From: Erysipelotrichaceae bacterium
GTDB lineage: Bacteria > Bacillota_I > Bacilli_A > Erysipelotrichales > Erysipelotrichaceae
Length of the DNA: 32,000 nt
Direction of reading: 5' to 3'
Assembly (NCBI GenBank): GCA_030604855.1
Contig: JAUVVC010000006.1
Coordinates: forward strand, 60,001-92,000
The notes below the pieces were generated by a model, which made no database searches, had not been told where the DNA came from, and saw only the letters and a list, made by a program, of their open reading frames with translations. Positions within the stretch are counted from its first letter, which is position 1. Every line of letters begins with the position of its first letter. Position numbers and translations under genes: made by a program. Positions 9,479-18,091 of this stretch are shown in pieces.

Positions 9479-10981
9479 ATGAAATTCAACTTTAGAGTAT
9501 CACCGAACTATCGCACACCCTTATCGACACAACGTGTTATGTGGGAAGTCACTGCGGCGATCAGTGTGGTCTTGGCCTTTGCAGTATTCTATTACTTTAC
9601 GGAATTGGGTACGGATTATGGCATTCATGCCGTATTGATGATCCTTACGTCTTTAGCGGTTGCGATTGGAACCGAAGTGCTCTGGGCTTTGTTCTATAAG
9701 AAGAACATCCTCAAACATTTGAATACATCGTTCCCTTGGGTCATTGCTTTGATCTTCGTTGGTACGATGAGCATCAATCGTCCTTTATATGTTTCTGCTG
9801 TGAGTGTGTTTGCCGGGGTTTTCTTTGGTAAACTCGTCTTCGGTGGTTTTGGATATAACATCTTCAACCCAGCGGGTGTTGGTCGTGCAGTGGCGGCATT
9901 GTCCTTCAGTGGTTTTGTGACCAATAAGTTTGCGGATGTGGTTACAGGTGCGACAGCAAACCAAGTCATGCAAGGCTTGGGCTGGGTCATCACAAAGCCT
10001 GAAGCCGTTGATGCGTTCTTAAATCAATTTGGTGGTTTAAGTGGACTAGCGATTGGTTTCTATCCTGCAAGTTTGGGTGAGACCAGTACGATTCTCTTGT
10101 TGTTGGTTGGTATTTATCTCTCTGTCCGTAAAATCATCGATTGGAAGGTTCCATTGACCTTCATCGGTTCGATTTTCATCTTTACATATGCCATTGCATT
10201 ATTCAAAGGCATGGGTGTCTGGTATCCTTTGTTCCATATCGTCAGTGGTGGTGCGATGTATGCGGCGGTCTTCATGATCACCGATCCCGTCACGACACCG
10301 ACGTCGAGCATCGGACGGATCTTGTTTGCGATGGGGGTTGCCATCTTCGTGGTCATCATCCGTATCAAAGCTAATCTTCCTGAAGGTGTTGTTTATGGAA
10401 TTCTATTCATGAATATGTTGTCTCCTTTATTGGATCAAATCACGGATGGTTGGGTCTTTAAGGAAATGAAGAAATTCTATATTCAAATCGGTACCTTGTT
10501 TGTGGCTGGCTTGGCGGTGATCTTATTGGTCGCAAGTCAAATCTCCTACAATGAACCGGTTGTCGAAGTTGAACCTGTCGTTGTCATCAACTTGAAGGGT
10601 GAACCGGTTGTGGTATTGGCAGAAGCAGTATCGCCAACGGCTCTCGTTGTTTCTGAAACGGCTGAAGGTGATGTTACGACTTTTGTTGTAAACATCAATG
10701 GTTATGCGTTCCAAAGCGATCACGATGATGATCCTCAACCGAATACATTGGAGATCAAGGTCAATACTGCGACGCAAACGGTTGAAAGTGTCAGCTATGT
10801 GACTTTCTCAGATTCTCCGAATATCGGGGATAAAACGAATTCAGATGTCTTCTTGTCTCAATTTGTTGGCTTATCCATTGTGGATGAAGCCGCAAGTGTG
10901 GATGTCGTATCTGGAGCCACCATTACATCTCAGTCGGTTGTTCGTGCTGTTCGTGCCGCAATTGCAGCGGCTTTGGATTAG
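9479..10981 (+). CDS. rnfD: Rnf subunit D fused to a C-terminal RnfG-like TM anchor plus FMN_bind domain
   Basis: Polytopic NqrB/RnfD core with flavinylation motif DVVTGAT (T159) up to about aa 327. An extra TM helix follows (IGTLFVAGLAVILLVASQI), then a ~140-aa domain ending in DVVSGATITSQSV (T481). Confidence 0.88.
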   Translation: MKFNFRVSPNYRTPLSTQRVMWEVTAAISVVLAFAVFYYFTELGTDYGIHAVLMILTSLAVAIGTEVLWALFYKKNILKHLNTSFPWVIALIFVGTMSINRPLYVSAVSVFAGVFFGKLVFGGFGYNIFNPAGVGRAVAALSFSGFVTNKFADVVTGATANQVMQGLGWVITKPEAVDAFLNQFGGLSGLAIGFYPASLGETSTILLLLVGIYLSVRKIIDWKVPLTFIGSIFIFTYAIALFKGMGVWYPLFHIVSGGAMYAAVFMITDPVTTPTSSIGRILFAMGVAIFVVIIRIKANLPEGVVYGILFMNMLSPLLDQITDGWVFKEMKKFYIQIGTLFVAGLAVILLVASQISYNEPVVEVEPVVVINLKGEPVVVLAEAVSPTALVVSETAEGDVTTFVVNINGYAFQSDHDDDPQPNTLEIKVNTATQTVESVSYVTFSDSPNIGDKTNSDVFLSQFVGLSIVDEAASVDVVSGATITSQSVVRAVRAAIAAALD

Positions 10982-10990
10982 GAGGCTAAG

Positions 10991-11494
10991 ATGAAAAAGA
11001 TTATCACATTAACATTATTCTTAGCGATTATCAGTGGTTTGGCCGGGGCAACCTTGGCATTCGTCAATAATATGACAAGCCCGATTATTGAAGAGCGTAA
11101 GATTGCGGCTGTCAAAGCTACACTTGAAGCGATCTTCCCGGGCGCAAGTGAATATAAAGAAATTGCATTTGAAGATGCCAGTGGGACGGTAACGAACGTT
11201 TATGAAGCAGTAGGTGCCGGTTATGCGTTCAATGTCAATGTCCAAGGTTATAAGGATGTCATCACGTTCATCGTTGGAATTGATGAGGCCGGTGAAATCG
11301 TTGGTTTCACTGTCAACTATGTCAACGATACACCGGGCTTAGGCTCAAAAGTAGCTGACCCTGAATTTGCGAATTCGATCATTGGTTCAAAAGTTGGAGA
11401 TAAAGTGGATACCATTGCGGGTTCAACTGTTTCTTCAGCGGCTGTCGTGAAAGGGATTGATGCGGCTTCGGCTGTTTATCAATCGCTAAAGTAG
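10991..11494 (+). CDS. rnfG: Rnf subunit G (FMN-binding)
   Basis: 167 aa. N-terminal TM anchor and FMN_bind domain (TPGLGSKV...DTIAGSTVSSAAV). AGGAGG RBS. Confidence 0.85.
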   Translation: MKKIITLTLFLAIISGLAGATLAFVNNMTSPIIEERKIAAVKATLEAIFPGASEYKEIAFEDASGTVTNVYEAVGAGYAFNVNVQGYKDVITFIVGIDEAGEIVGFTVNYVNDTPGLGSKVADPEFANSIIGSKVGDKVDTIAGSTVSSAAVVKGIDAASAVYQSLK

Positions 11495-12147: not shown

Positions 12148-12723
12148 ATGGAAGGTTTCTTCACATTATTCATCTCTGCTATTTTAATCAATAACATCGT
12201 TCTGACGAAGTTCTTGGGCATGTGTCCAATCATGGGTGTATCCCGTAAAACCAGCTCAGCTTTGGGTATGGGTGCTGCGGTCGTCTTTGTCATTTTTGGC
12301 TCATCTGTTTTCACATATGTACTTTATTACAATGTGTTGGTTCCAATGAGCCTTGAGTATATGGATTTGATCACGTTCATTCTCGTCATCGCGGCGTTTG
12401 TCCAATTTGTCGAAATGGTCATGAAGAAGTTCACGCCAGCTTTGTATAAGGCTTTGGGAATCTTCTTGCCTTTGATCACAACGAACTGTGTCGTCTTGTA
12501 TGTGACTTTGGTCAATATTACCAATGGTTATAGTTTTATGGAAATGGTTGTTTATTCCATTGCGGTTCCTTTAGGTTTTACCTTGGTTCTCTACATCTTC
12601 TCAACAATTCGTGAGCGTTTGGACAGTGCTCCTGTTCCTAAGGCATTTGAAGGCAATCCGATTGCTTTGATCGTCATGGCGATCATGGCAGCGATCTTCA
12701 CTGCTTTCGCTGGTTTGGTTTAA
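12148..12723 (+). CDS. rnfA: Rnf subunit A
   Basis: NqrE/RnfA signature: SAILINNIVLTKFLGMCP, FLPLITTNCVVL. ATG 12148 is preferred over the in-frame GTG 12139, which overlaps the rnfE stop. Confidence 0.9.
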   Translation: MEGFFTLFISAILINNIVLTKFLGMCPIMGVSRKTSSALGMGAAVVFVIFGSSVFTYVLYYNVLVPMSLEYMDLITFILVIAAFVQFVEMVMKKFTPALYKALGIFLPLITTNCVVLYVTLVNITNGYSFMEMVVYSIAVPLGFTLVLYIFSTIRERLDSAPVPKAFEGNPIALIVMAIMAAIFTAFAGLV

Positions 12724-12724
12724 G

Positions 12725-12919
12725 ATGGAAGCCGTCATTTATATCGCGGCCTTAGGTGGGTTCTATGCTTTGGTTTATTATTTGAACCACAAGACGCCGA
12801 AACCTGAGGGATGTGAATACATCGATGCGGCCTGTAATTCGTGCAGTGTAGGTATTTGCAGCAATCATCCATCGCAAAATATCATCAAGGAGGATATGAT
12901 TCATGTTGAGCGCAGTTAG
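12725..12919 (+). CDS. Small single-pass Cys-rich membrane protein of unknown function, embedded in the rnf operon
   Basis: 64 aa. One TM helix (AVIYIAALGGFYALVYYL) followed by CEYIDAACNSCSVGIC (C-x6-C-x2-C-x4-C). Starts 1 nt after the rnfA stop and overlaps the rnfB start by 17 nt. No family recognised. Confidence 0.5.
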   Translation: MEAVIYIAALGGFYALVYYLNHKTPKPEGCEYIDAACNSCSVGICSNHPSQNIIKEDMIHVERS

Positions 12920-13211
12920 TATGATGTTGGTCCTTGGGGCGGCTTTGGGTTTGCTCTTGGCGATTGCAGGTAAAGTCTTCTATGTGGAAATCGATACGCG
13001 TGTTGAACAGATCACGAACATGTTGCCAGGATACAACTGTGGCGCATGTGGTTATCCGGGATGCGCAGGTTTAGCCGATGCGTTGGTCAGTGGAGAGGCA
13101 AAGAGTCCAACTCAATGCAAACCTTCGACTGAGGCCCATCGTTCTCGGATCACCGCTTTCATGGAAACCGGTGTGGATCCACAAGCTCCAAAAGAGTCTG
13201 TACAAGCTTAA
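12903..13211 (+). CDS. rnfB: Rnf subunit B, minimal form (TM anchor plus N-terminal 4Fe-4S domain only)
   Basis: N-terminal TM helix, then LPGYNCGACGYPGCAGLADALV...QCKP, the RnfB-type C-x2-C-x4-C-xn-C cluster motif. AGGAGG RBS. Ends at 102 aa and is immediately followed by a terminator. Confidence 0.8.
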   Translation: MLSAVSMMLVLGAALGLLLAIAGKVFYVEIDTRVEQITNMLPGYNCGACGYPGCAGLADALVSGEAKSPTQCKPSTEAHRSRITAFMETGVDPQAPKESVQA

Positions 13212-13217
13212 TTTCTT

Positions 13218-13243
13218 AAAGATCGTGAAAGCGATCTTTTTTT
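13218..13243 (+). terminator. Rho-independent terminator of the rnf operon
   Basis: AAAGATCG-TGAAAG-CGATCTTT followed by TTTTTAT. Confidence 0.65.
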
Positions 13244-13292
13244 ATTTTAGGGGAAGTTCATGGAGGTGCGTATCTAGTAGTGAGGTGTTTGT

Positions 13293-13658
13293 ATGAAGGG
13301 TGTGATTCAGGCTTATGCATTGTTGGTTGTGTGTCTGGGTGTATCGCTCGGCATGATGATTGCGGTTCAATATGATGTCCTATTTTATAAGCATCAGTTC
13401 ATTCTGAAACAAAGCATGCAAGAAAGTATGCTGGAAAGTTTGGATCTGCCTTATCAGGAACGCGATCTGTATACGTTCAATCGTTTAATTGAACTCTTGA
13501 GCATGCGTATGGGTTCAAATCGAAGCGTAAATGTCAGTTTGATGGGATTCAATGCACAACCCTTGGCACTCAGAGTCAAATTAAGTGTATCCGATGAGAA
13601 TCACATCATCCCTTATTCCATTCATCTCGATAAAACCATGATAGAGGTATCCCCATGA
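13293..13658 (+). CDS. Putative TadE-like minor pilin / pilus assembly protein
   Basis: 121 aa. N-terminus MKGVIQAYALLVVCLGVSLGMMIAV is a short polar head plus a hydrophobic helix. It parallels the TadE-like protein at 16941 in size and N-terminus. First gene of the tad-like cluster, with an ATGA overlap to the next gene. Confidence 0.4.
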   Translation: MKGVIQAYALLVVCLGVSLGMMIAVQYDVLFYKHQFILKQSMQESMLESLDLPYQERDLYTFNRLIELLSMRMGSNRSVNVSLMGFNAQPLALRVKLSVSDENHIIPYSIHLDKTMIEVSP

Positions 13659-14356
13659 AACAGAAGTATTCTTTATTGCATTTCGGTGTCGCTTTAGGTT
13701 TGTGTTTACTCTTTATGGGTGGAAGCTTGTTGTACATTCACAATCAACTTGAGCTGGTGGAAGTCTATGTCGCAAGAGAAAACTTACCGGCACGGACGCA
13801 CATCAGTGAGAACAGTCTATCTAAAATCAAAGTTCCCAAAGCGTATCTCAGTGAAGATGCGATTACGGATAAAGCTCAAATGTTGGGAAAATACGTCAAA
13901 ATCAATGCATCGATTCCAAAGGGAAGTCTTGTGTACACTTCAACGATTGAAGCTTTGGATGAAAGCATCGATCAACCCAGTCTTTTATTGAAAAACAATC
14001 AGGCAGTCTATGCGATTGATGTCAGTTTGACCAGTACATCTGGAAATACATTGCAGATTGGATCGAAAGTAGATATTTACGGAACTTTGAAAGTCGGACG
14101 TGAGACAAAGGTCGATTTACTTTTCAAACAGGTTCGAGTGATCAGTGTCAAAGATAAGAATGGTAATGAGGTCGATCGTAAAAGCAATCAGATGCCCAAG
14201 CTATTATTGGTTGCATTTGATCAAACTGAAATCCCGTTGATTACCAAATTGATCGCAATGGGCGAGATCACCATCACACCAACTGCGGAGTTCTTGAGTG
14301 AGGATGAGTGTGTCCTCAATGAACATTCACTTCTATTGGAAATCCTCTATGCTTGA
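13655..14356 (+). CDS. CpaB/RcpC-like Flp pilus assembly protein
   Basis: N-terminal TM anchor, then a SAF-like segment (VEVYVARENLPARTHISENSL...IPKGSLV) and a beta-rich C-terminal domain (VDIYGT...VRVISVKD...LLVAFD), as in CpaB. Confidence 0.6.
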   Translation: MKQKYSLLHFGVALGLCLLFMGGSLLYIHNQLELVEVYVARENLPARTHISENSLSKIKVPKAYLSEDAITDKAQMLGKYVKINASIPKGSLVYTSTIEALDESIDQPSLLLKNNQAVYAIDVSLTSTSGNTLQIGSKVDIYGTLKVGRETKVDLLFKQVRVISVKDKNGNEVDRKSNQMPKLLLVAFDQTEIPLITKLIAMGEITITPTAEFLSEDECVLNEHSLLLEILYA

Positions 14357-15365
14357 TAACTTTGATTTTGGAGTGATTCAGTCGTATGTCGATGATCCAA
14401 TGGTTACGGATATCAATTACAATGGTCGCCAATGTTGGATCGATCATCTTCGTAAAGGACGATATCCTTTAGCACCTTTTGATGCCCATGAAGCGATGCA
14501 GATACTGGTTTATAAAATTGCGAACTATGTGAATCTACCTTTCAATGCGACCAGTCCTGTCTTGGAAGCAGAAACTGAAAGTCTGCGTATCAGTCTATTG
14601 CACCCCAGTGTTTCGAAAGGGGGATTAAGCCTCTCTTTACGCAAAACACCTGCGCTCTGTCGTTTACACGATGCAGAGACGGGGATTAAGGCTTATGCGC
14701 CGGAATGGGTGATCAGTTTATTGCAGGAAGCTGTCAGGCATCGTAAGAACATCTTAGTAAGTGGGCTTCCGGGTTCAGGTAAAACCGAATTTGTAAAGTT
14801 TCTGATGGAGAGCATTCCAGCTCAAGAACGCGTGATTACGATTGAGGATAGTCTTGAACTTCGTTATGGTGATATCCATCCGACAAAAGATCACGTGATG
14901 CTTAAGGTTCAGGAGCGCTTTGGCTATGAGCAAGCCATCAAAACAAGTCTGCGCCAAAGACCGGATTGGATCTGTGTCTCTGAGGTCAGGGGTGCCGAAA
15001 TCATGTATCTTCTGCAGAGTATTTCAACGGGAACCAGTTTGATCAGTACAATTCATGCGGAGAGCGCAATAGCGATACCAGCGCGGATGTTGATGCTCAT
15101 GCCAGGGTTTGATCTGAACAATCAAAGTCTGCTTACCATGATTCATGATTGCATCGACTTTGGCATTCATTTGGAGGTCAATCATGATGGACAGAAAGTC
15201 GTACGATCGATTCGAGAGTTGGTCCAATTTAAAATCAATGAGAACTATGAACAAGAAAAGAAAACAATCTATCAAAGCGATGATAAAAACAAAGCCGTTC
15301 GCTACCAAAGCCTATTTGCAAGTAAAAAAGCTAAAACTCAAAGAACTCCTTTGGATCTTCAGTGA
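14349..15365 (+). CDS. tadA: TadA/CpaF-type (VirB11-like) secretion ATPase
   Basis: Walker A GLPGSGKT, Asp box ITIEDSLEL, Walker B-like RPDWICVSEVRGAE, His box STIHAES. N-terminal VTDINYNG...WIDH motif. Start ATG 14349 overlaps the upstream stop (ATGCTTGA). Confidence 0.85.
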   Translation: MLDNFDFGVIQSYVDDPMVTDINYNGRQCWIDHLRKGRYPLAPFDAHEAMQILVYKIANYVNLPFNATSPVLEAETESLRISLLHPSVSKGGLSLSLRKTPALCRLHDAETGIKAYAPEWVISLLQEAVRHRKNILVSGLPGSGKTEFVKFLMESIPAQERVITIEDSLELRYGDIHPTKDHVMLKVQERFGYEQAIKTSLRQRPDWICVSEVRGAEIMYLLQSISTGTSLISTIHAESAIAIPARMLMLMPGFDLNNQSLLTMIHDCIDFGIHLEVNHDGQKVVRSIRELVQFKINENYEQEKKTIYQSDDKNKAVRYQSLFASKKAKTQRTPLDLQ

Positions 15366-16059
15366 GTTGGCTATAACCATTTGGATCGCCACACGCTTTG
15401 GACTCCCACGACAATCTATCTTTATTCTTTTCATCACGACGATCGCACTGACCCCTCTGTTCTTTCGTTATCAATTGCAATGGATCAAACAAGAACAAGC
15501 CTTTTTCAATCTGACGGATTTTCTCCAACAATTCATTGCGAGCTTTAAGTCACACCCAAAAATATACGCTGCGCTATTGGAATGTGAGGACATCACACAA
15601 CATCAATTACACAAGGATGTGAGGTTTTGGATCGAGGGACTCGAGAAGGGTGGATACCCTCAGGAACACGCCAAAGCGTTCATGGCGAAATATGGTCATT
15701 TCACTATTGGGAATATGGTGCATCTCATGTTGGCGGTGGAGAATTATGGAAGTTTCCAGTATGCCGAAGGATTTGAAATCATTCAAGATGACATTGAGGA
15801 ATGGATTGAAGATACCTATGCCTTCAAACAGGAACAAGTCCAGACGCAACGGAAGATTCAGATACTCTCCTTATTTTCAATGGGCATCGCTTACATGAGC
15901 CACAACATGCTTTTCAAATCGGATCTGGTCAGTGAACTTGGTTTCTACCATACCAGTCTGATGTTGTTCTTCGGCTTGATTCTGCTCACACTCTTCTTTG
16001 CGCAAAAGATGATCGCGGTGCCTTGGATTGAGAAGAAGGAGTTGATATGGAGCGCTTGA
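15280..16059 (+). CDS. TadB-like platform protein (T2SS-F family). Start uncertain.
   Basis: N-terminal TM pair, a ~150-aa helical cytoplasmic domain, and a C-terminal TM pair. Candidate starts are ATG 15247, ATG 15280 and TTG 16316-equivalent at 15316, and none has a clear RBS. Every candidate start overlaps the ATPase gene. Confidence 0.55.
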   Translation: MIKTKPFATKAYLQVKKLKLKELLWIFSELAITIWIATRFGLPRQSIFILFITTIALTPLFFRYQLQWIKQEQAFFNLTDFLQQFIASFKSHPKIYAALLECEDITQHQLHKDVRFWIEGLEKGGYPQEHAKAFMAKYGHFTIGNMVHLMLAVENYGSFQYAEGFEIIQDDIEEWIEDTYAFKQEQVQTQRKIQILSLFSMGIAYMSHNMLFKSDLVSELGFYHTSLMLFFGLILLTLFFAQKMIAVPWIEKKELIWSA

Positions 16060-16793
16060 TCTTTAGTTTGATCATCTTAGTCTTATGGAGATTGGGTGAT
16101 CCTTGGTTGAATGACCACTTGATGAACATACGCGAGAAAGACTGTGTTCGACTGGAAAATGTTCTTAAAATCAAGTTGGACCATACCTGGATGCTGGAGC
16201 GTATCCAACGTTTGAAACATCTTCGATATGCGATTCTATTGGTCACATTCGATATTCGTTTTGCTTATCTGGTTCTCTTTGTTTGGATCTTTGTTTATAA
16301 ATCACCGTATCTTCGTTTGAAACATCAAGCGCGCAAACACATTCAATTGGTGCGTTACCAATTTCCTATCTATCTTCGTCAGCTCCAGATCCTCCTACAA
16401 AACAACACCGTTGTAAATGCGGTGGAGCAGTCGTTGGCGTATGTGCCCGAAGTGCTTAAAGACGATATCCATGTCTTTCATTCGGCACTCTTGGAAGATT
16501 CACGTTCACTCTCCACCTACATCACACAAATGCAGGCTTACCAACTTCCTGAGATCACCCGTGCTTTCAAATGGCTCTATCGTTACCAAAGCATTGGTTC
16601 TCAGGATGCTTATCGTCAGTTTAATCGTATGATTCTATCGACATCGAAATGGTTGCGTCAAGCACGCATCCATCAAAAACAGAATGCCGTTGGAATATAT
16701 CAATGGATGGGAATGTTGCCTCTGGTGGGTGTCACCGTGGTCTTCATTTCAGCCATGTTAAGTGTCGCACTGACACTCTTTGAAAGGGGGTGA
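16047..16793 (+). CDS. TadC-like platform protein (T2SS-F family)
   Basis: Same TM / helical domain / TM layout as the upstream gene. AAGGAG RBS. 13-nt overlap with the upstream gene. Confidence 0.5.
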   Translation: MERLIFSLIILVLWRLGDPWLNDHLMNIREKDCVRLENVLKIKLDHTWMLERIQRLKHLRYAILLVTFDIRFAYLVLFVWIFVYKSPYLRLKHQARKHIQLVRYQFPIYLRQLQILLQNNTVVNAVEQSLAYVPEVLKDDIHVFHSALLEDSRSLSTYITQMQAYQLPEITRAFKWLYRYQSIGSQDAYRQFNRMILSTSKWLRQARIHQKQNAVGIYQWMGMLPLVGVTVVFISAMLSVALTLFERG

Positions 16794-16797
16794 ACAC

Positions 16798-16941
16798 ATG
16801 AAGGCGTTTTTTGAAGAATATGGTTTGGTTTTGGTCGTAACCGTCATCGCAACAGGCATGATTACGTTCTCGGAGACATTTAAGACAACGATGCAAACAA
16901 CTCTCGAAACTCAATGGTCGGAAATGACGACAGGTAGCTGA
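16798..16941 (+). CDS. flp: Flp-family (type IVc) pilin-like protein, 47 aa, not in the ORF track
   Basis: Hand translation: MKAFFEEYGLVLVVTVIATGMITFSETFKTTMQTTLETQWSEMTTGS. EYGL followed by a hydrophobic helix is the Flp core motif. AAAGGGGGTGA RBS 5-6 nt upstream. The stop overlaps the next ATG (TGATG). Confidence 0.6.
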   Translation: MKAFFEEYGLVLVVTVIATGMITFSETFKTTMQTTLETQWSEMTTGS

Positions 16942-17279
16942 TGAAAGGTGCATTTGAAACGGCTTTAGTGATGTTGTTTGGCATGATGTTCATGGTTATG
17001 GGAATGGATTACATGAAGGTTGTTATGATGAATAATCAGGCACGCTTGTTGGCTGAAAGCAGTTTGGCAATCTTGGAAAACCAAAATCGTTACGACGCAG
17101 CGGTTCAAGTCTTGATCGATCATACCAAAGACACTTGTACATCCTGCATCTTGTTGATTGAACCGCATCTCGATCATCCTGGACGTTACCGTGTCATCGT
17201 AAACTATCCGATCGAATTGAAGCATATCCGTTATCACACCATGGCGAAACTCGAGTTATTAAGCCGTCCCTTAAGTTAG
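16941..17279 (+). CDS. TadE-like pseudopilin
   Basis: 112 aa. N-terminus KGAFETALVMLFGMMFMVMG resembles the TadE N-terminal motif (xxxVEFALVxPxLL). Confidence 0.5.
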   Translation: MKGAFETALVMLFGMMFMVMGMDYMKVVMMNNQARLLAESSLAILENQNRYDAAVQVLIDHTKDTCTSCILLIEPHLDHPGRYRVIVNYPIELKHIRYHTMAKLELLSRPLS

Positions 17280-17301
17280 TGCAGGAATCTGCACTTTCTT
17301 T
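17278..17301 (+). terminator. Rho-independent terminator of the tad-like operon
   Basis: AGTGCAG-GAAT-CTGCACT followed by TTCTTTGCTT. The stem starts within the stop codon. Confidence 0.55.
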
Positions 17302-17329: not shown

Positions 17330-18091
17330 ATGTTAATCACCATTGATGTCGGCAATTCCAATATTGTCTGTGTAGTCTATTCCAAACTGAAAGAACGTCT
17401 TTACGATAAACGTTTTGAAACCATCAAAGAGAACATTGAGGAAGCGTATCCAACGTTTGTCAAAGAAGAGTTGTTGTTTTTAAAGGAGCGATTTGCATGT
17501 GAGGCGGTCATGTTGAGCAATGTTGTTCCCGCAATCGATCAAGTCTTAGTAAATGCTTTAAAAGAAGGTTTGGGAATCGATGTTTATCGCTGTGATTTGA
17601 GCACCGTACCAGAGTTCAAAGTGCTTTTGGAGGATCCTCGTGAACTGGGGGCGGATTTTATTGCGACCAGCTATGGTGCGATGGCAAAGTATCCTTTACC
17701 GATCATTGTAGCGGATCTCGGATCTGCGACGAAAGTAAGTGCGTTGAACCTAGAGGGTGATTTCGCAGGTGGAATCATCATGCCGGGTTTGCGAATCGCT
17801 CAAGATGCACTGAATCGTTTCATCCCACATCTCCCTCAGATTCCACTTGTCGTACCGAAATCCGTTTTGGGAAGTGATACGATCACGGCAATGCAAGCAG
17901 GTTTGATGTATTCTACGATTGATTCCGTTGAAGGCATTGCACGTAGAATCGAACTCAGTTTCAATGCAAAGTGTTCAAAAATCCTAACAGGTGGCTTGTC
18001 TGTATTGATTCATGAGGATACGGAAGACTTCGTTTATGAACCGTATTTATTGAATGAAGGCTTGTTTGAAATCTTCCAACTTTTAAAGTGA
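17330..18091 (+). CDS. coaX: Type III pantothenate kinase
   Basis: MLITIDVGNSNIV (the DxGNT/S phosphate-1 motif), ADLGSATK, GGIIMPG and TGG blocks typical of CoaX. Confidence 0.88.
   Translation: MLITIDVGNSNIVCVVYSKLKERLYDKRFETIKENIEEAYPTFVKEELLFLKERFACEAVMLSNVVPAIDQVLVNALKEGLGIDVYRCDLSTVPEFKVLLEDPRELGADFIATSYGAMAKYPLPIIVADLGSATKVSALNLEGDFAGGIIMPGLRIAQDALNRFIPHLPQIPLVVPKSVLGSDTITAMQAGLMYSTIDSVEGIARRIELSFNAKCSKILTGGLSVLIHEDTEDFVYEPYLLNEGLFEIFQLLK

Follow-up and report, generated by a model that had tools for sequence, protein, structure and literature searches.

A seven-gene unit at positions 13293-17279 (+ strand) of a 32,000-nucleotide stretch of DNA from an Erysipelotrichaceae bacterium (assembly GCA_030604855.1, contig JAUVVC010000006.1, positions 60,001 to 92,000 of the forward strand; the whole stretch is referred to here as the window) is predicted to encode a Tad-like (type IVc-like) filament system, whose three pilin-type subunits would be synthesized already in their mature form and without a removable leader. 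We put the probability of this reading at about 0.55. From 5' to 3', the genes encode a protein of 121 amino acids (p121), a CpaB-like protein, a TadA/CpaF-type ATPase, a protein in the TadB position, a protein in the TadC position, an Flp-like protein of 47 amino acids and a protein of 112 amino acids (p112), and the start and stop codons of neighboring genes overlap. In all three small proteins (i.e., p121, the Flp-like protein and p112), translation starts at Met-Lys, directly ahead of a hydrophobic helix. A preliminary description of the window, made from the DNA sequence alone, had noted that none of these proteins carries a class III leader peptide and had suggested that they are made in an essentially pre-processed form. 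The comparative analysis reported here confirms and generalizes the observation, of which the pre-processed pilin is the best-supported, although not a proven, interpretation.

Start sites of the three small proteins

One genome per species was scanned with the ATPase of the unit, which identified 80 related loci. In the 55 loci of the Erysipelotrichaceae type, the N-terminus of the Flp-like protein, M-K-A-F-F-E-E-Y-G, is nearly invariant and always begins at the same codon, which is ATG in 51 loci, TTG in three and GTG in one. A strong GGAGG or GGGGG Shine-Dalgarno sequence is found a few bases 5' of this codon in all loci, and three loci have a stop codon immediately before it. Members of the p112 family start with M-K-[G/A]-x-[F/I/V]-E, where the Glu at position 6 is present in 52 of 62 members and invariant in the curated alignment, while members of the p121 family start with M-K-[G/S]-[I/V] and possess neither Glu nor any other acidic residue in this segment. 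Nearly every member of the three families has K or R as its second residue. The approximately 20 hydrophobic residues that open a long N-terminal helix are present together with a nearby Glu, except that p121 is without the Glu. A prepilin leader ending in Gly (G/XXXXEY) is absent, and only Met-Lys precedes the position that aligns with +1 in the Flp-like protein. Because they are conserved, the leaderless N-termini are far beyond what is expected by chance, and the lack of a conventional class III leader on any of the three proteins is a trait of the families rather than of this one genome.

The preliminary description had excluded longer leaders because of in-frame stop codons, and its coordinates for the stops (13281-13283, 16771-16773 and 16935-16937) and for the starts (13293, 16798 and 16941) are all exact. 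The exclusion also holds in the relatives, as stops are found 0-9 codons upstream in many loci from independent assemblies. The TTG at 16780, the alternative start that had been considered for the Flp-like protein, lies within the TadC-like gene and 5' of the Shine-Dalgarno sequence AAAGGGGGTGA. It could still be argued that the true starts are upstream and encode normal leaders, masked by sequencing error or mis-called starts, given that some database homologues are called with N-terminal extensions of 12-32 residues and that the upstream frame is open in several loci. These extensions, however, show neither conservation nor a G/XXXXEY site and are read in a different frame over the 3' end of the TadC-like gene, whereas the Shine-Dalgarno sequence lies just 5' of the conserved Met and TTG or GTG replaces ATG at exactly that codon. 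Similarly, all 26 full-length homologues of p112 in the database are called at 112 amino acids (two further entries are of 69 and 104 amino acids). Taken together, the stops, the Shine-Dalgarno sequences, the variation of the start codon and the unconserved extensions exclude a local error or an upstream start. Comparison with the N-termini of homologues, which show the same leaderless starts, therefore does not support an annotation or sequence error, and such an artefact, which we regard as exceedingly improbable, is on comparative grounds already refuted. In one metagenome-assembled genome of Erysipelothrix, ATA is found at the conserved start codon of the Flp-like gene (~12521-12523 of locus L052), with the Shine-Dalgarno sequence in its usual place; the start in this genome is either a rare, non-canonical ATA or a GTG three codons upstream.

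Pilin-like features and the predicted assembly machinery

When the family profile of the Flp-like protein was compared with the sequences of the PDB, its best match, which is weak (E=0.024), was the mature, 45-amino-acid Tad pilin PilA of Caulobacter (8u1k). In this alignment, EYGL falls on EYGL and Glu7 on Glu5, and the EYG motif is invariant in the Flp-like family. Because the profile aligns on mature PilA, the 47-amino-acid primary product would correspond to a mature Tad pilin with Met-Lys added in front, which is what the preliminary description had proposed. The labels used there, "Flp" and "TadE-like", are loose ones, and in Pfam no cut-off is reached for Flp_Fap or TadE. Pfam TadE (PF07811) matches neither the window proteins nor any of 51 family members, and a search of NCBIfam with the Flp-like family also gave no match.

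Confident models of the two larger proteins were obtained with AlphaFold2 (AF2). The model of p112 (predicted local distance difference test score, pLDDT, 87.6) consists of a helix of residues 2-48, a helix of residues 53-65 and three strands. That of p121 (pLDDT 81.4) consists of a helix of residues 2-49, a helix of residues 54-73 and three strands, and was built from an alignment of only three sequences, as a database search with the concatenated p121 and p112 profile returned only two proteins. The predicted layout of both, in which a long N-terminal helix is followed by a short helix and a three-stranded sheet, is the layout of pilins. The three small families align mutually over no more than the N-terminal helix, where they are in register starting at residue 1, and sharing of the N-terminal segment only is, by analogy, what is seen with pilins of one system. 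Among Pfam families of unknown function, DUF4320 (PF14208, cut-off 25 bits) does not match p112 of the window and is matched below threshold by 11 of 28 members of its family (best E 0.0014), while a true member of DUF4320, that of locus L083 (see below), scores 39.4 bits. For DUF5411 (PF17424, cut-off 30 bits), p121 of the window scores 13.3 bits and 6 of 23 members match (best E 1.2e-6), with position 1 of the profile aligned with residue 1 of p121. Thus, p112 and p121 are probably distant relatives, below threshold, of DUF4320 and DUF5411, respectively. A CxxC motif of p112 (residues 66-69; 17136-17147 of the window) is nearly invariant and lies immediately N-terminal to the first strand of the sheet, where it could form a disulfide or bind a metal.

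Rapid evolution is usual in exposed major pilins. Among the products of the operon, the Flp-like protein is the best conserved, with identities of 69-87%, compared to 47-68% for the ATPase and 42-61% for CoaX, which is encoded by the downstream gene. Its conservation points to a short, wall-embedded pseudopilus or to a tightly packed core. A phmmer search with the 47-amino-acid protein against 1.84 billion representatives recovered eight 50%-identity clusters only, a result that is silent on distant, leader-bearing relatives.

Of the window proteins of the unit, only the ATPase and the CpaB-like protein have usable matches in Pfam and NCBIfam. The ATPase is of the T2SSE type and matches PF00437 (2.2e-27) and the TadA-family model TIGR03819 (2.2e-36, below cut-off), the latter nearly tied with VirB11, for which the score is 123.5 bits against a cut-off of 249.95. 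Its homologues number in the thousands, and the closest ones are from Erysipelotrichales and named CpaF by their sources. The CpaB-like protein reaches the cut-off for SAF (26.2 bits; cut-off 21) and remains below it for RcpC (26.4 bits; cut-off 28.8) and for the pilus_cpaB model TIGR03177 (8.9e-15). The TadB- and TadC-position proteins show weak mutual similarity (hhalign E 0.0012, probability 19%); the matches of their profiles to the CENP-Q coiled coil in the PDB are spurious. Five homologues in which the platform is a single fused protein gave no T2SSF match in Pfam either. A type IV secretion system for conjugation, with the ATPase as VirB11, was considered and rejected because its partner genes are absent: neither VirB4, VirD4 nor a channel gene is found in the operon or the window.

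The preliminary assignment of the locus as Tad-like is upheld by the TadA/CpaF-type ATPase, the CpaB-like protein and the alignment of Glu7 of the Flp-like protein with Glu5 of PilA. Like the Tad/Flp systems of Aggregatibacter (tad) and Caulobacter (cpa), the operon combines an ATPase of this type, a CpaB/RcpC-like protein and two proteins in the TadB and TadC positions with a tiny major subunit, which has the length of mature PilA and carries EYG(L) followed by a hydrophobic helix, and with two larger helix-plus-sheet proteins in the position of minor pilins. It differs from these systems in having no Gly-ending leader, no tadV/cpaA and no TadZ, and its proteins have no Pfam-level match to Flp, TadE or T2SSF. 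In its minor proteins, the similarity is to DUF4320 and DUF5411 rather than to TadE/F, and its major subunit is unusually conserved. The operon is therefore Tad-like, yet lacks three features by which Tad systems are defined, namely the Gly-ending leader, a TadV encoded in the locus and pseudopilins of the TadE family.

Leader cleavage and the prepilin peptidase

Reviews of type IV filaments state that prepilins need to be processed by a dedicated peptidase before assembly and that their leader peptides invariably end in Gly or Ala (PMC10191384). The preliminary description had found no peptidase gene in the locus, and searches by motif and by phmmer agree for the operon, the window and the related loci. 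No open reading frame (ORF) with the G-x-G-D-x-K motif of A24-family peptidases was found in the window or the 80 loci (1.3 Mb), and a phmmer search of the same sequences with TadV of a Rhizobium Tad locus (H3), from which the canonical Flp was also taken, gave a best E of 0.2, on a spurious ORF. None of the 80 loci has an A24 peptidase within 10 kb. The seven genes that lie between rnfB and coaX have all been assigned, none of them as TadV/CpaA, and the rest of the window holds no further gene for a type IV filament or for secretion. A plasmid match (H22), expected to be a canonical Tad locus, turned out to be an isolated tadA. Pilins of the mannose-sensitive hemagglutinin (MSH) type retain normal cleavable leaders. 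Like the operon, MSH loci have no peptidase gene, and it has been suggested that they rely on the enzyme of a co-resident system (PMC6668835), while in the operon it is the leader itself that is missing.

We propose that the three subunits would insert N-in/C-out and that the positive charge on the cytoplasmic side would come from Lys2 together with the N-terminal amine. No leader would be removed, and Met1 would probably be retained, because a Lys in second place disfavors methionine aminopeptidase. The subunits would then be extracted and polymerized by the TadA-type ATPase via the two TadB/TadC-position proteins, and Lys2 or the N-terminal amine of a neighboring subunit may neutralize Glu6 or Glu7. 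By analogy with GspK-type minor pilins, which do not have Glu5, the Glu-less p121 may be located at the tip or prime assembly, while p112 would be a minor pilin and the CpaB-like protein an extracytoplasmic conduit. Because the major subunit is the most conserved, an exposed adhesive pilus that evolves fast would be less likely than a short pseudopilus embedded in the wall.

Several observations weigh against pilins made already mature. That the operon forms a filament and that its N-termini are left uncleaved are predictions made from the genes. With regard to the filament, only 4 of 27 members of the Flp-like family match Pfam Flp_Fap, all below threshold; Foldseek comparison of the AF2 models of p112 and p121 with the PDB found no significant match, the lowest E being 0.03, and no pilin; and profile searches with the TadB- and TadC-position proteins gave neither a T2SSF match in Pfam nor a relevant match in the PDB. 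With regard to the leader, most members have Gly, Ala or Ser directly after Lys2, a combination reminiscent of a minimal [K/R][G/A/S] cleavage site. In addition, the search for A24 peptidases covered the window and the 80 loci and not whole genomes, and a ComC-type peptidase is probably present elsewhere in Erysipelotrichaceae cells, because comG operons have been reported to be vertically inherited in this family (PMC12786226).

The main rival holds that each protein has a three-residue class III leader, M-K-[G/A/S], which is cut by an A24 peptidase encoded elsewhere, such as ComC of a competence pilus, so that the mature protein starts at residue 4 with Glu at +3/+4 instead of +5. Such a leader is possible because Lys2 is followed by Gly or Ala in most members: position 2 is K/R nearly throughout, and the residue after it is Ala in 52 of 55 Flp-like proteins, Gly/Ala in 48 of 51 p112 proteins and Gly/Ser/Ala in 40 of 44 p121 proteins. 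Gly or Ala is stated to be the invariable last residue of leaders (PMC10191384). Borrowing of a peptidase has a presumed precedent in the MSH loci, and its source could be the comG-associated machinery mentioned above. The preliminary statement that Gly is lacking at -1 consequently holds in the register that places Glu at +5, but not if position 3 is taken as the end of the leader. On the other hand, residues other than Gly/Ala are found at position 3 in 3 of 55 Flp-like, 3 of 51 p112 and 21 of 44 p121 proteins, Ser being as frequent as Gly in p121. In three loci, two or three of the proteins carry I, L, M, H or S at this position (MKI/MKL/MKM in L037, MKM/MKM/MKS in L043 and MKS/MKI/MKH in L060), while their operons are intact, and the relatives in Lachnospiraceae and Coprobacillaceae carry D, E, H, Q, N, I or L. 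Because of the variation in these three loci and in the relatives from Lachnospiraceae and Coprobacillaceae, a peptidase that needs Gly/Ala at -1 is an unlikely fit. The joint change at position 3 of the three proteins suggests, from the sequences compared, a shared partner or packing and not a cleavage site. A cut after residue 3 would also break the EY register in which the Flp-like protein aligns with mature Tad pilins, and the absence of a peptidase within 10 kb of any of the 80 loci likewise argues against it. We know of no leader as short as three residues. Overall, we consider a three-residue leader unlikely.

A different possibility is that there is no filament, and that the three proteins are signal-anchor membrane proteins of a Tad-derived ATPase/platform complex that serves a different purpose, for instance in secreting proteins or assembling the envelope. 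For ordinary signal-anchor proteins, the missing leader would need no special explanation, as Met-Lys followed by a hydrophobic helix is a common start of bitopic membrane proteins. The Glu-less p121, the lack of any threshold-level match to Flp, TadE or T2SSF, the failure of Foldseek to find a pilin and the conservation of the Flp-like protein above that of the ATPase, which is unlike exposed pilins, would all be in line with such a complex, and the relatives from Clostridia have been published only as a "postulated secretion-related system" (PMC9523054). However, two of the families have an invariant Glu that lies five or six residues inside a membrane helix, a hallmark of pilins that would be costly in a plain anchor. 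The EYG motif, the length of 47 amino acids and the alignment to mature PilA also fit a pilin, the three families share only their N-terminal segment and do so in register, as do pilins of one system, and the gene set of an ATPase, two platform-position proteins, CpaB, one tiny protein and two helix-plus-sheet proteins is the layout of Tad. We therefore find a complex without a filament quite improbable.

Operon boundaries, distribution and relatives

The unit is flanked by the rnf operon on the upstream side and by coaX (at 17330) on the downstream side, and terminator-like hairpins mark both boundaries (Table 1). The start of the p112 gene overlaps the stop codon of the Flp-like gene (TGATG). 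The ORF of the TadB-position protein is open from 15145 in the window and its closest relatives, i.e., over ~220 bases (15145-15365) inside the 3' end of the ATPase gene, while in more distant loci its start overlaps the ATPase gene by 4 bases.

Table 1. Features of the seven-gene unit and its boundaries, in window coordinates.
Feature	Position	Strand	Basis
Terminator-like hairpin and T-run 3' of rnfB; upstream operon boundary	13218..13239	+	Hairpin in sequence
In-frame TGA three codons 5' of the p121 start	13281..13283	+	Sequence
p121, 121 aa, MKGVIQAYALL; predicted pilin-shaped, N-terminal helix without Glu	13293..13658	+	Homologues, DUF5411 similarity, AF2
CpaB/RcpC-like protein, 233 aa; N-terminal membrane anchor, SAF domain and RcpC domain	13655..14356	+	SAF 1.2e-5, RcpC 6.7e-6, TIGR03177 8.9e-15 (below cut-off)
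TadA/CpaF/VirB11-type secretion ATPase, 337 aa; start placed by homologues (M..FDFG)	14352..15365	+	PF00437 2.2e-27
TadB-position polytopic membrane protein; candidate starts 15280 and 15316	15280..16059	+	Position; weak profile similarity to TadC-position protein
TadC-position polytopic membrane protein, 248 aa	16047..16793	+	Position
In-frame TGA nine codons 5' of the Flp-like start	16771..16773	+	Sequence
Shine-Dalgarno site AAAGGGGGTGA for ATG 16798; overlaps 3' end of TadC-like gene	16783..16793	+	Conserved in all loci
Flp-like protein, 47 aa, MKAFFEEYGLVLVVTVIATG...; candidate major subunit, length of mature Tad pilin plus Met-Lys	16798..16941	+	Homologues, profile match
In-frame TAG two codons 5' of the p112 start	16935..16937	+	Sequence
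p112, 112 aa, MKGAFETALV; predicted pilin-shaped, invariant Glu6, nearly invariant CxxC, candidate minor pilin	16941..17279	+	Homologues, AF2
Terminator-like hairpin directly 3' of p112, before coaX 17330; downstream operon boundary	17278..17295	+	Hairpin in sequence

In the neighboring rnf operon, RnfD (9479-10981) possesses an extra C-terminal FMN_bind domain (residues 423-495) and is followed by a separate RnfG with the same domain (10991-11494). RnfB is minimal, consisting of 102 amino acids with the PF04060 Fe-S motif only and without ferredoxin domains; it is preceded and overlapped by an ORF of 64 amino acids with one membrane helix, a Cys-rich tail and no family match (region 12725-13211).

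The gene order rnfB-p121-cpaB-ATPase-tadB-tadC-flp-p112-coaX is kept in ~60 species-level genomes, including those of Erysipelothrix, Traorella and many uncultured Erysipelotrichaceae. Because of this synteny, the operon is, as far as gene order can tell, an old, chromosomal and vertically inherited one in Erysipelotrichaceae. More distant loci from Lachnospiraceae, Eubacterium and Coprobacillaceae (L067-L081) encode ATPases of 41-45% identity and DUF5411-like proteins, a platform that is one fused protein of ~490 amino acids and small proteins that begin with MRAFLEEYG, MKDFLGEYG or MKAVISEYG (pattern M-[K/R]-x-x-Φ-x-E-Y-G), with stop codons close upstream. The system is flanked in L080 (7439-9808), L069 (13691-16471) and L075 (8163-9944 and 13603-17640) by secreted proteins of very large size, which contain thioester (TED), Ig-like or beta-helix domains and may be adhesins or cargo.

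These distant loci correspond to the "postulated secretion-related system" that was identified by gene-context embedding in Roseburia, Ruminococcus and Eubacterium, for which CpaF, PilC/GspF, DUF5411 and an internalin-like protein are listed and the other genes are unlike known components (Miller et al., 2022; PMC9523054). The system of Miller et al. shares with the operon the homologous ATPase, a DUF5411 protein, the platform protein(s) and the leaderless N-termini of its small proteins, and differs from it in the fused ~490-amino-acid platform, a MinD/ParA-like gene and the attached large surface proteins; its pilin-like N-termini and missing peptidase were not discussed (PMC9523054). A further cluster is found on pBTBC6, an 89-kb conjugative plasmid of B. 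thuringiensis (L083, NZ_CP015156.1 22396-37442), where it encodes an SAF protein, an AAA protein, an ATPase, two membrane proteins, a small protein and a DUF4320 protein. It resembles the operon in the SAF (CpaB-like) protein, the ATPase (30% identity), the two membrane proteins of ~300 amino acids and the DUF4320 protein, which starts directly with a hydrophobic helix. In contrast to the operon, it is plasmid-borne and has a TadZ-like AAA ATPase, a longer secretion ATPase (491 amino acids) and a small protein with a long hydrophilic N-terminus and no EYG.

In proteomic work on E. rhusiopathiae, a "Flp/Fap pilin component" and CpaB were detected, and both were lower in an avirulent derivative (PMC4968806). 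Their gi numbers are four apart, which matches the gene order of the operon, and we infer from this spacing, not from verified sequences, that the two are homologues of the operon's products. The tad locus of Bulleidia was rejected as the same system, as it is a different, canonical locus that was horizontally acquired and bears tadV (PMC12786226). A literature search for leaderless Tad pilins, an Erysipelothrix prepilin peptidase, ComC of Erysipelotrichaceae and the shortest known leaders found no description of leaderless pilins or of a missing peptidase.

The wider proposition is that Erysipelotrichaceae, Lachnospiraceae and Coprobacillaceae harbor a clade of type IV filament machines in the Bacillota with pre-processed pilins, of which the operon would be the founding member, for which the prepilin peptidase is dispensable and in which Lys2 and the initiator Met replace the leader and the new N-terminus in topology and charge pairing. 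We advance it tentatively, as its chances fall somewhat short of even. Among type IV filament machines, the operon may be the first to do without a leader-cutting peptidase, a part so far treated as a universal core component. If true, removal of the leader would not be mechanistically required for the extraction and polymerization of pilins, and the operon would provide a minimal, seven-gene system for asking what the leader does. It would probably also explain why pilin finders based on signal peptides, as well as Tad models, miss this widespread family. Finally, the Pfam families DUF4320 and DUF5411 would gain a function, as would an operon carried by many Lachnospiraceae of the gut and by the pathogen genus Erysipelothrix.

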